From contig OZ252299.1 of the NCBI GenBank assembly GCA_965250285.1, positions 3,264,001-3,328,000 on the forward strand: DNA of 64,000 nt, in the 5' to 3' direction. The notes beneath the pieces are model-generated. The model was not told the origin of the DNA, ran no database searches, and was given only the letters and a program-made list of their open reading frames with translations. Numbering within the stretch: the first letter of the stretch is position 1; each line of letters starts with the position of its first letter. The translations under genes were made by a program, and so were the position numbers. Of this stretch, positions 3,233 through 41,044 are shown piece by piece. Source of the stretch: Myxococcota bacterium. GTDB lineage: Bacteria; Myxococcota_A; UBA9160; UBA4427.

Positions 3233-3418
3233 GTCAGGGGCACGTGTTCCAGCGGAGCGACCGCCGCCCCTGCCCCGCAAGCCCGTCGCCCACGGCGCCC
3301 CGCCACAGCGGGCGGCGCAAGATCGCTCGAAGCTGAAGCGACCGGGGACATGCACGCGCCGCCACCGGAACGCCAAGCAGGACCGGAGGGAGTCGCAGTC
3401 GGAACACGTGCCCCTGAC
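3233..3418. repeat. 186-nt structured intergenic repeat, copy 1
   Basis: Perfect 18-bp terminal IR (GTCAGGGGCACGTGTTCC / GGAACACGTGCCCCTGAC). Internal blocks shared with 6406-6591 and 8470-8610. Confidence 0.9.
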
Positions 3419-3462
3419 CTGGCACCCAACCCACCCGACCAAGATCGAAACGACCCGAGGGT

Positions 3463-5474: not shown

Positions 5475-6056
5475 TTAGAACTCCGACTGACCGAAGTTGG
5501 CGGCGCAGGGACCCACGGTCTTCAGCAGGTTGTTACCGAGGTTCGCGGGATCCGAGTTCCACGTACCGGTCGCGGGGCAACCCTGGGTGCCGGCGATGGT
5601 CGGGCCGGGGACACCACCGACGGGCGGCTGGTTGGCGACGTAGCCCCAGACCTGCGGCGTACCGTTGGCGTCGATGTCGGCCACGGCGTCGGCGGTGAAG
5701 CCCGTGAAGGCCGGCGTCACGGCGACGGAGTAGGTGAAGAAGACGTCACCCTCGGGCGACCAGCCGATCACGTCGAAGTCCGTGCCCGGACCACCGGCGT
5801 TCACGAAGGCAACCTTCTGGTTCTGGTTACCGACGGGCGGCGAGATGTTCGCCGGCACGTACGAACCGTACTCAGCGAGGTAGCTCTCCTCAGCCGTGCG
5901 GATGGCGGCGATGTTGACCTTGCCTTCCGAGGTCTTCGACTTCAGCTGGAAGCGAAGGAAGTTCGGGATGGCGATGGCCGCCAGGATGCCGATGATCGCG
6001 ACCACGATCATCAGCTCGATCAGGGTGAAACCCTTCGTGCTCTTGTTGCGCATCAT
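5475..6056 (-). CDS. pilA: Type IVa major pilin
   Basis: Class III signal KG|FTLIELMIVVAIIGILAAIAIPNF with E5, followed by LRFQLKSKTSE as in myxobacterial/Geobacter-type pilins. C-terminal Cys pair. Confidence 0.93.
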   Translation of the reverse strand: MMRNKSTKGFTLIELMIVVAIIGILAAIAIPNFLRFQLKSKTSEGKVNIAAIRTAEESYLAEYGSYVPANISPPVGNQNQKVAFVNAGGPGTDFDVIGWSPEGDVFFTYSVAVTPAFTGFTADAVADIDANGTPQVWGYVANQPPVGGVPGPTIAGTQGCPATGTWNSDPANLGNNLLKTVGPCAANFGQSEF

Positions 6057-6128
6057 AGTTTCGGTTCTCCAGATGGTGGGGAGTGCGACCACGCCCCGAC
6101 TCGAATGACTCAACTGGGTGGTTCCTAG

Positions 6129-6145
6129 AGCAACCCTGATGCCAA
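6129..6145 (-). promoter_or_regulatory. Sigma54 (-24/-12) promoter of pilA
   Basis: Minus strand TTGGCATCAGGGTTGCT has GG-N10-GC and matches TGGCAC-N5-TTGCW, about 73 nt upstream of the pilA start. Confidence 0.85.
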
Positions 6146-6264
6146 ATGGCAACGCGCCATCTCCAGGAGGTGCAACTCCTTCGTCAACCCGAGTCTCTGT
6201 CCGAAGAACTTTTTTCGAATCGAGCACCTGCGCCGATTCAGAGGTCCGAAACCGACGCTCGAAA

Positions 6265-6281
6265 GTGACGGATCCCGACAC
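6265..6281. promoter_or_regulatory. Candidate enhancer (EBP/PilR-type upstream activating sequence)
   Basis: Near-palindrome GTGACGG-ATC-CCGACAC about 120 bp upstream of the -24 element, with an A/T tract (6204-6216) in between. Confidence 0.35.
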
Positions 6282-6405
6282 CCCGACCCGCGCGCGACGT
6301 CACCCGACGTCCATCCCCAACGGATTCATCCAACGCCACCAAAACGACGCCCCTCCCGCCGCCGCACCGCGCGGCGAAAACGCGAACCACCCCCCAAAAG
6401 ACCGA

Positions 6406-6591
6406 GGGCCGGGGTCGTGTTCCAGCGGAGCGACCGCCGCCCTGGCCACGGCCTCCACGCCTCCACCGCCAGCCGTCACGGCGGGCGGCGCAAGCCCGCC
6501 CATACCCAAAACGACCGGGGACGAGCACGCGCCGCCAGCGCAACGCCAAGCAAGCCAGGAGGGAGTCGAAGTCGGAACACGACCCCGGCCC
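6406..6591. repeat. 186-nt structured intergenic repeat, copy 2
   Basis: Perfect 18-bp terminal IR (GGGCCGGGGTCGTGTTCC / GGAACACGACCCCGGCCC). Aligns without gaps to copy 1. Confidence 0.9.
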
Positions 6592-6625
6592 CGAGCACCC
6601 TCACCCGCTCTGCAAGATTCAAGCT

Positions 6626-7084
6626 CTAGTCGAAATCGAGATCGTCGAAGATCCCGCCGAGCCCTTCGTCGTCGTCCCCGAACTCTTCTTCGAAGCCATG
6701 CGCCCCGAGGTCGTCGTCTTCGAACTCATCGTCGAAGTCGTCCTCGCTCGCGACTTCGGCGCGGCGACCGTATTCGGGCGGCTCGGGATGGTCGAGCTCG
6801 CCGGCCTCGATCGACGCGCCCACGTCGTCGGGCAGCGCTTCGGCGAGGCGCTCCTGCTGCGCCTCCCACGCGACGCTGAGGGCGCCCTCTTCGGTGTTGC
6901 CGATGAACTCCGACACGGCGTCGACGTCGGGGAAGTGGCCGGGATCTTGAAAGAACCGGATCAGCTCACCGAAGGCCTTGTACGCGAAGAGCAGATCGCG
7001 CACCGGCACTTCGACGACGCGATCCTCGTCGATGTCGTCGATGCCGTACTCGACGACCTCCTGCACGGTCGTGTAGCGGGCCAT
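6626..7084 (-). CDS. Hypothetical acidic protein with D/E-rich tail
   Basis: 152-aa ORF (MARYTTVQEVVEYG...) with normal high-GC codon usage and no recognised family. Confidence 0.75.
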   Translation of the reverse strand: MARYTTVQEVVEYGIDDIDEDRVVEVPVRDLLFAYKAFGELIRFFQDPGHFPDVDAVSEFIGNTEEGALSVAWEAQQERLAEALPDDVGASIEAGELDHPEPPEYGRRAEVASEDDFDDEFEDDDLGAHGFEEEFGDDDEGLGGIFDDLDFD

Positions 7085-8397: not shown

Positions 8398-8469
8398 CGC
8401 ATGTCTCCGATCTGGTTGTTGGGCGCCGGGGCGGCGGGGGGGAGCAGCATATCAAAGCGGCGGGTGCAT

Positions 8470-8610
8470 GGGCCGGGGGTGGGGATTCCGACTGCGACTC
8501 CCTCGGGTCTTGCTGTTCGTCGGCGTGGCGGCGCGTGCTTGGCCCCGGTCGCTTCTCTTTCAGGCGGGCGGGCGCCGCCCGCCGTGACGGGGCGCGGTGG
8601 GGGCTCTGGA
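8470..8610. repeat. Structured intergenic repeat, copy 3 (inverted relative to copies 1-2, one arm missing)
   Basis: Reverse complement contains CCGTCACGGCGGGCGGCG...GCGACCGGGG..GCACGCGCCGCCA...GAGGGAGTCGCAGTCGGAA with the same spacing as copies 1-2. Confidence 0.85.
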
Positions 8611-40414: not shown

Positions 40415-41044
40415 GTGATCAGCCAGACCCGAACGAGCGGTTCCAGTGGTTCGAGTGGTTCCAATGGTTCAAGCGGTTCCGATGGTTCGAGTGGTTTCAA
40501 TGGTTCAAGCGGTTCCAGTGGTTCGAATGGTTCCAGTGGTTCCAGAGACGTGCGCAGTGCACGCAGCGATCGGGACGAGAACGGAGACGGAGAACGGGAC
40601 GACGCCCGCATCGATCGCGCCAACCGGCGTTTCCGGCGCGATCGAGGCAGACACGCGAGCGGCCCACGGCGACGTCGCGCGCCTCTCGCGCGTCGAGGCG
40701 CGGCCCTACGCGTCCGCATGGCGCCGGTCGACGCGTCCCGCGCTCGGCCCGCCGCCGGCGGCGCCCCTGCATCGGCCATCGCACGACCCTCAGCGCCCCG
40801 CGGCGGCGTGAGTGAAGGCCTGGCCGTGATGCTCTCGGTCGTCGTCTTCGGGCTCGGGGCCGCCGCCGTCGTTGCGCAGAGCGAGCTGCAAGCACGCGAT
40901 CCCGGCCTCGACATCGCGCTGCTTCGAGCGCACGCATCTCGCCCGCCTGCCTCGGTCACCCCCGACGGCACTCGCCACGTCCACACCTCCAGCTCGCCGG
41001 CGGCGCCCCCCACGTGGTCGCCGGCGGGGGACGTGGCGAGGTAG
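40415..41044 (+). CDS. Hypothetical protein with a GSS/GSN repeat and one TM segment
   Basis: GTG at 40415 after GGAGAGGGAG and a hydrophobic segment LAVMLSVVVFGLGAAAVVA; otherwise low complexity. Confidence 0.4.
   Translation: MISQTRTSGSSGSSGSNGSSGSDGSSGFNGSSGSSGSNGSSGSRDVRSARSDRDENGDGERDDARIDRANRRFRRDRGRHASGPRRRRAPLARRGAALRVRMAPVDASRARPAAGGAPASAIARPSAPRGGVSEGLAVMLSVVVFGLGAAAVVAQSELQARDPGLDIALLRAHASRPPASVTPDGTRHVHTSSSPAAPPTWSPAGDVAR
40439..40546. repeat. 12 x 9-bp tandem repeat (GGTTCNNNN) with a 36-bp higher-order period
   Basis: GGTTCCAGT GGTTCGAGT GGTTCCAAT GGTTCAAGC GGTTCCGAT GGTTCGAGT GGTTTCAAT GGTTCAAGC GGTTCCAGT GGTTCGAAT GGTTCCAGT GGTTCCAGA. Confidence 0.92.

Follow-up and report, generated by a model that had tools for sequence, protein, structure and literature searches.

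A lineage-specific intergenic DNA repeat with mirrored arm changes that probably spreads as a REPIN/BIME-like hairpin unit

We wanted to understand how two copies of a repeat can differ in the sequence of their arms and yet stay perfectly paired. The repeat, here called module A, lies in the window (the whole 64,000-nt stretch analysed, which belongs to a 6.25-Mb genome referred to as G000). As an earlier sequence-only reading had claimed, copies 1 (3233-3418) and 2 (6406-6591) are both exactly 186 nt long and align without gaps; 139 of their 186 positions are identical. Its second claim was confirmed as well: the left arms differ at 6 of 18 positions, every difference is mirrored, and the 18-bp arms of each copy pair perfectly. 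Given an interior mismatch rate of 35/150, six mirrored changes would occur by chance with a probability of about 2e-7. When a one-base shift of a G-run is allowed in both arms, the six differences become about three substitutions and one symmetric indel, that is, about four events.

The features around copy 2 and the positions of the other copies in G000 are collected in the table. The arms are not the ends of the element, since conserved bases flank them externally in copy 2: CGA precedes the left arm and GCACCC follows the right one. The end signature on the right lies 25 nt past the stop codon of the upstream minus-strand ORF. This bears on the proposal that pairing is kept while the outer sequence is free. 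Pairing is indeed kept while the arms change, but the outermost sequence is not free, since a short conserved end signature sits just beyond the arms. The length of 186 nt is not universal either, the interior measuring 114-116 nt in 12 genus-type copies and 111-114 nt in 49 copies from another genome, G005. Two contigs from public runs, which may come from the source sample itself, cover copy 2 with zero letter differences. The 151-aa ORF at 6626-7081 has an acidic tail and was present in one of five relatives searched (89% in the congener G001). A 9-bp tandem repeat array was also seen in the window at 40418-40554.

Table. Positions of module A copies and of the features surrounding copy 2 (window coordinates, except copy 4)
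Feature	Position	Strand	Basis
Copy 1 of module A including its end signature, located between the convergent genes for MATE and SPFH	3233..3427	+	
Flanking type IV pilin-like gene with N-methyl motif, outside the element	5475..6035	-	
CGA, short conserved other end of module A	6403..6405	+	
Module A copy 2, 186-nt unit bounded by 18-bp inverted arms	6406..6591	+	
Left arm of copy 2, rich in G; its inner part GTGTTCC is conserved within the genus, and its outer part varies in a mirrored fashion	6406..6423	+	
Conserved motif inside the left arm, near-invariant across family copies	6424..6438	+	
Conserved motif inside the right arm	6558..6573	+	
Right arm of copy 2, exact complement of the left arm	6574..6591	+	
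End signature outside the right arm (GGGTGC on the minus strand), common to families A, B and D	6595..6600	-	
Flanking host ORF, 151 aa, no Pfam family, stop adjoining the end signature, outside the element	6626..7081	-	
Truncated copy 3 of module A, lacking its left third	8462..8604	-	
Module A copy 4	G000:C1:3457148-3457333		

Module A is an interspersed repeat, with four copies in G000, three in G001, two in G022 and at least 56 in G005, where 56 of 59 scored candidates were accepted by the covariance model. This model detected A in 4 of 41 family genomes, and a rebuilt model in 4 of 68. Because G001 is 83% complete and the other genomes are drafts, a gene missing from them is to be read as not found rather than absent. 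A DNA search across the class matched 5 of 225 genomes; in the three that do not belong to the genus, the matches were short. Pattern scans returned 79 loci in genome contigs (51 in G005, one in G001 and 27 chance hits by model score), 10 in metagenome contigs (six true, two chance, two with partial motifs only) and none in viral contigs, and the plasmids searched held no match; the collection scans thus yielded nothing beyond close relatives. On a lower-GC contig (L129:2830-3050, also L130), a tandem unit carries the two inner motifs of A without its arms.

Orthologous A sites were found filled, empty or halved across relatives. Copy 1 is the surviving half of an inverted doublet, which is complete at the same site in both relatives. 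At the site of copy 3, a complete doublet is present in L134 and the site is empty in G001; conversely, one site holds a doublet in L127 and is empty in G000. Such doublets, with their GGGTGC ends outward, occur in G001 as well as in L008, L127, L133 and L134, the last three being contigs of one metagenome assembly that we assumed to represent one organism. In G001, the site of copy 2 is occupied by a diverged A copy whose stem has another sequence, with 17 of its 18 positions paired. Presence and absence at orthologous sites therefore amount to gain or loss of A. No target duplication, YTAR included, was visible around A at the sites compared, where the flanks of the relatives are too diverged to be read. 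Same-site copies from different genomes are only 0.62-0.68 identical, no closer than other pairs, and the tree of 14 copies is unresolved apart from the G001 pair (0.81). Among G005 copies, linkage decays with distance (r2 from 0.21 to 0.04), a decay to which recurrent mutation could contribute, and 71-89% was obtained in the four-gamete test. Judged from these patterns, sequence is shuffled among A copies. A DGR-like adenine bias was not seen in A copies.

We then considered the genomic context of A. All four G000 copies are intergenic. In G005, convergent gene ends lie beside the GGGTGC end in 44 of 52 copies, 33 of the 52 are placed between convergent genes, and the 90 ORFs neighbouring them are unrelated host genes. 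No G005 copy was shown to lie inside a gene, a flanking gene being assigned for 47 of the 52 and five being unclassified. Among 16 other copies, 13 face a stop (10 by script and three by reading) and three face a gene start. A is thus extragenic, multi-copy and biased towards gene 3' ends and convergent pairs, as REPs and REPINs are; like them, it also occurs in inverted doublets and in mosaics. The latter are found in G005, where A copies lie amid short repeated units and one further module. In two of these mosaics (contig ends L072 and L107), the end of an IS110/IS1111-like element, presumably of IS110 type given its N-terminal motif, falls at the identical position of a mosaic module, which indicates that the A-bearing mosaic acts as a target in G005.

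A k-mer and inverted-repeat survey of G000 revealed two sister families: module B, a 118-nt hairpin with 37 motif hits, and family D, with 21 true copies among 24 hits and about 130-137 nt between arm ends. Both form doublets and carry the tag GG[G/T]TGC-NN-GGG ahead of a 17-20-bp arm. B and D are homologous to each other, and A matches them in its ends only, so that the three share the end signature GGGTGC-NN-GGG with an arm, usually just past stop codons and often as inverted doublets. An Rfam scan of B and D returned chance matches only. The site of copy 4 holds A in G000 and L127, but in G001 it holds a module of the B type, 23 nt past the stop codon that all share, showing that A was replaced by B at one site. 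At this site G001 also has an extra 468-aa gene (L303:1177-2390, also L304) with a GGG-R-A-A and GVSGG pattern, which we take to be patatin-like; it is missing between the same genes in G000. Eleven of the 21 D hairpins cluster in about 90 kb (G000:C1:5231000-5319000) among ordinary host genes.

B is also found within an insertion sequence. In G083, it sits between the transposase stop and the right end of an intact IS5, in six identical copies. Most G000 copies of B carry IS5 ends at CTAG, B being inside IS5-derived MITEs located on CTAG stop codons; tandem expansions of a 135-nt unit, up to four units, were observed in such MITEs in G000 and L142. Out of 21 IS5 loci, B is present in three and A in none; in 11 close relatives whose tail could be read, B is missing, so that it looks acquired by one IS5 sub-clade. 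It replaced about 85 nt of the IS5 tail, with boundaries at CCGA and GGCAC, which places the outer stem inside the element. The stem is accordingly not target sequence, the ends of A being the same as those of B at this replacement. When B is free, its end lies at various distances from the stop, from 2 nt upward.

The maintained pairing had been ascribed to selection on structure or to arm-to-arm templated correction. The closing stem is kept well beyond copies 1 and 2: among 204 stem cells in 12 genus-type copies, 189 are Watson-Crick, 12 are G.T, none is A.C and three are of other kinds. Covariation between the arms exceeded that of 500/500 shuffles, in a test inflated by the relatedness of the sequences, and slid partners were paired at only about 40%. 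Covariation was scarce in the inner helices, and for 11 of 12 copies shuffled sequences folded as well as the interior did, whichever strand was used (z about 0); hence the structure of A resides in its arms. Selection for a folded RNA that extends past the arms is not supported, while templated correction gains support. Counted as pair types and not as events on a tree, compensated and unpaired types number 14 and 7 in genus A copies and 18 and 2 in D, where 228 cells contain no G.T. Across A and D, 20 of 32 compensations are of the transversion type, a count that register shifts of the G-run may inflate for A. In RNA helices, compensation usually passes via G.U, which transversion flips cannot do; a single step in which one arm is copied from its partner therefore fits better. 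Such correction does not appear to be continuous, because young sets gather unpaired changes (one compensated and nine unpaired for G005 A, none and 19 for IS5-borne B) and because one G.T pair is retained in 9 of 12 A copies. Two copy-specific inverted repeats extend beyond the family ends, over 48 bp (94%) and 76 bp (83%), and judging from them symmetrisation does happen, although outer repeats of this kind are overall no commoner than in the control (5/45 versus 7/90). Altogether, we lean slightly towards templated copying between arms at the DNA level rather than selection alone.

To look for a protein that could mobilise A, we searched the genomes and loci for known enzymes. No Y1 transposase was found in the carrier genomes G000, G001, G005 and G022. 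Y1 was detected in 19 of 68 family genomes, but neither A nor B occurs in any of the 30 Y1 loci that were fetched, so that a cognate Y1 transposase flanked by the repeat, as known for REPINs, was not encountered for A. IS110 was present in two of five genomes, DDE_Tnp_1 in one (with no match in G000 or G001), IS91 in one and GIY-YIG in all five, and none of the loci read contained A, B or D. The reverse transcriptase domain RVT_1 was found in none of the five genomes, nor was there an adjacent RT as in retrons. Neither the 90 G005 neighbours scanned (out of 94) nor the 47 ORFs scanned around D (out of 107, at E 1e-15 only) included a transposase, recombinase or RT. In short, no mover of A was found in the genomes and loci searched.

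These results led us to regard A as a lineage-specific intergenic DNA repeat that probably spreads as a non-autonomous REPIN/BIME-like unit via a single-stranded hairpin, although a candidate mover was not found. In this model, the GGGTGC end together with the paired arm would be recognised by a protein acting in trans. When a copy is made or converted, one of its arms would sometimes be templated by the other, so that a single step produces a mirrored change; copies whose arms match would be the ones that continue to spread. Copies 1-4 of G000 may then be old residents remaining after partial deletions. That no excision or circle was seen counts against mobility. We think it unlikely that A is instead a decayed IS5-type MITE, with a hairpin derived from the IS5 3' tail, moved by the transposase onto TAG stops and having lost its terminal repeats by erosion. 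This would agree with the position of sister B in the intact IS5 tail of G083 and with its IS5 ends at CTAG in G000, with the fact that several A copies lie 22-25 nt from the stop, a distance equal to the length of an IS5 end, and with the insertion of IS5 MITEs at CTAG or YTAA (PMC3189936). Yet an IS5 end profile hit none of the 36 flanks examined (0/13 for A, 0/21 for D, 0/2 for free B) against 4/4 positive controls, and the autonomous parent found for B has no counterpart for A among the 21 IS5 loci. The lack of a DDE_Tnp_1 match in G000 and G001, the variable stop-to-end distance of free B and the three of 16 A copies facing gene starts also speak against it, and losing terminal repeats while keeping an internal hairpin would reverse the logic of a MITE.

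Rather improbable, in our opinion, is that A is a structured RNA, either a 6S-like small RNA or a 3'-UTR stability element, under selection on its fold. Its near-fixed length is close to the 187 positions of the 6S model, motifs are conserved inside both arms, the whole unit folds with a z of -4.6 on the plus strand, and distinct wobble types favour this strand by 7 to 1 (p 0.07). Moreover, no 6S match was obtained in G000, in which the slot between zapA and the 5-formyl-THF cyclo-ligase gene ygfA (L016:1400-1456) is only about 54 nt; the model RF00013 also matched none of 24 family relatives versus 3 of 16 other order members, meaning that it is weak in this family. On the other hand, no Rfam match to A came near a gathering score, RF00013 included, and neither a sigma-70 promoter nor an intrinsic terminator was matched in 6030-6700. 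The unremarkable folding of the interior and the scarce covariation of the inner helices do not suit an RNA, nor do the predominance of transversions and the lack of G.T in D, and dozens of shuffled G005 copies together with empty orthologous sites misfit a single-function RNA gene. The stop-free frame of both 186-nt copies had suggested an in-frame palindromic insert, like the RPE of Rickettsia, held at 62 codons to enter genes. This we consider highly improbable: open frames are common at 70% GC and differ between copies, and all placements in G000 are intergenic. The lack of 3-base periodicity (p 0.81 and 0.42) and the variation of lengths by single bases removed the in-frame idea. A bolder proposal, somewhat unlikely for now, can also be made. 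A, B and D might be interchangeable cassettes of an undescribed small mobile DNA class defined by the GGGTGC tag and the paired arm, which an enzyme outside RAYT, IS5, IS110, IS91 and RT would move or swap at fixed sites, rebuilding one arm each time, IS5 having acquired one cassette likewise. The three families differ in length and carry one end tag, they were swapped at a single site, and their mirrored changes can be measured separately from the unpaired ones, so that templated copying could be tested directly against selection. Should no new enzyme emerge, A would be a well-characterised yet ordinary lineage-specific repeat.

Finally, we compared A with known systems; no description of the family was found in the literature searched, mostly open-access texts without supplements. 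A resembles integron attC sites, in which pairing is conserved while the sequence is free and which are presumably read as folded single-stranded DNA. Unlike attC sites, A has no RYYYAAC/GTTRRRY ends, is neighboured by host genes and is not in cassette arrays. The attC-like repeats of G000 itself are a separate family located away from A: a likely chromosomal integron holds 54 of them in two arrays (49 and 5) at G000:C1:5464425-5489944 and 109238-111404. The bcr1 repeat of the Bacillus cereus group (about 155 bp; summarised in PMC3184786) is like A in size, non-conserved distribution and compensatory changes; it differs by its direct repeats of 5 bp and by an RNA fold that is extended, whereas pairing in A is confined to the terminal arms and a duplication was not found. 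A touches IS5-family MITEs only through B. The latter rides in an IS5 and its MITEs on CTAG stops, but A, D and free B have neither the terminal repeats nor the CTAG duplication of IS5 MITEs such as MITEPsy1 (PMC3189936), and their conserved part is the hairpin with its end tag. The closest likeness is to REPINs and REP-BIMEs with their RAYT (PMC3116915, PMC3733652, PMC3686654). They are extragenic with a bias to convergent ends, form inverted doublets, have a fixed length (for REPINs, a fixed spacer length; PMC3116915) with a variable interior, commonly show compensatory changes and bear a short tag at the stem foot; singlets as remnants, class replacement and targeting by an IS110-type element are likewise shared with A. 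The units differ in scale and tag, A, B and D being 118-186 nt long with long-range arms against REP palindromes of 20-40 nt, and GGGTGC standing in A where REPs have GTAG or CGTC (PMC3733652). Unlike REPINs, the carrier genomes tested held no RAYT and none was flanked by A or B. CGTC REPs are also without a dedicated transposase (PMC3733652), and how REP-like repeats arise, persist and replace one another in this situation is the question that module A touches.
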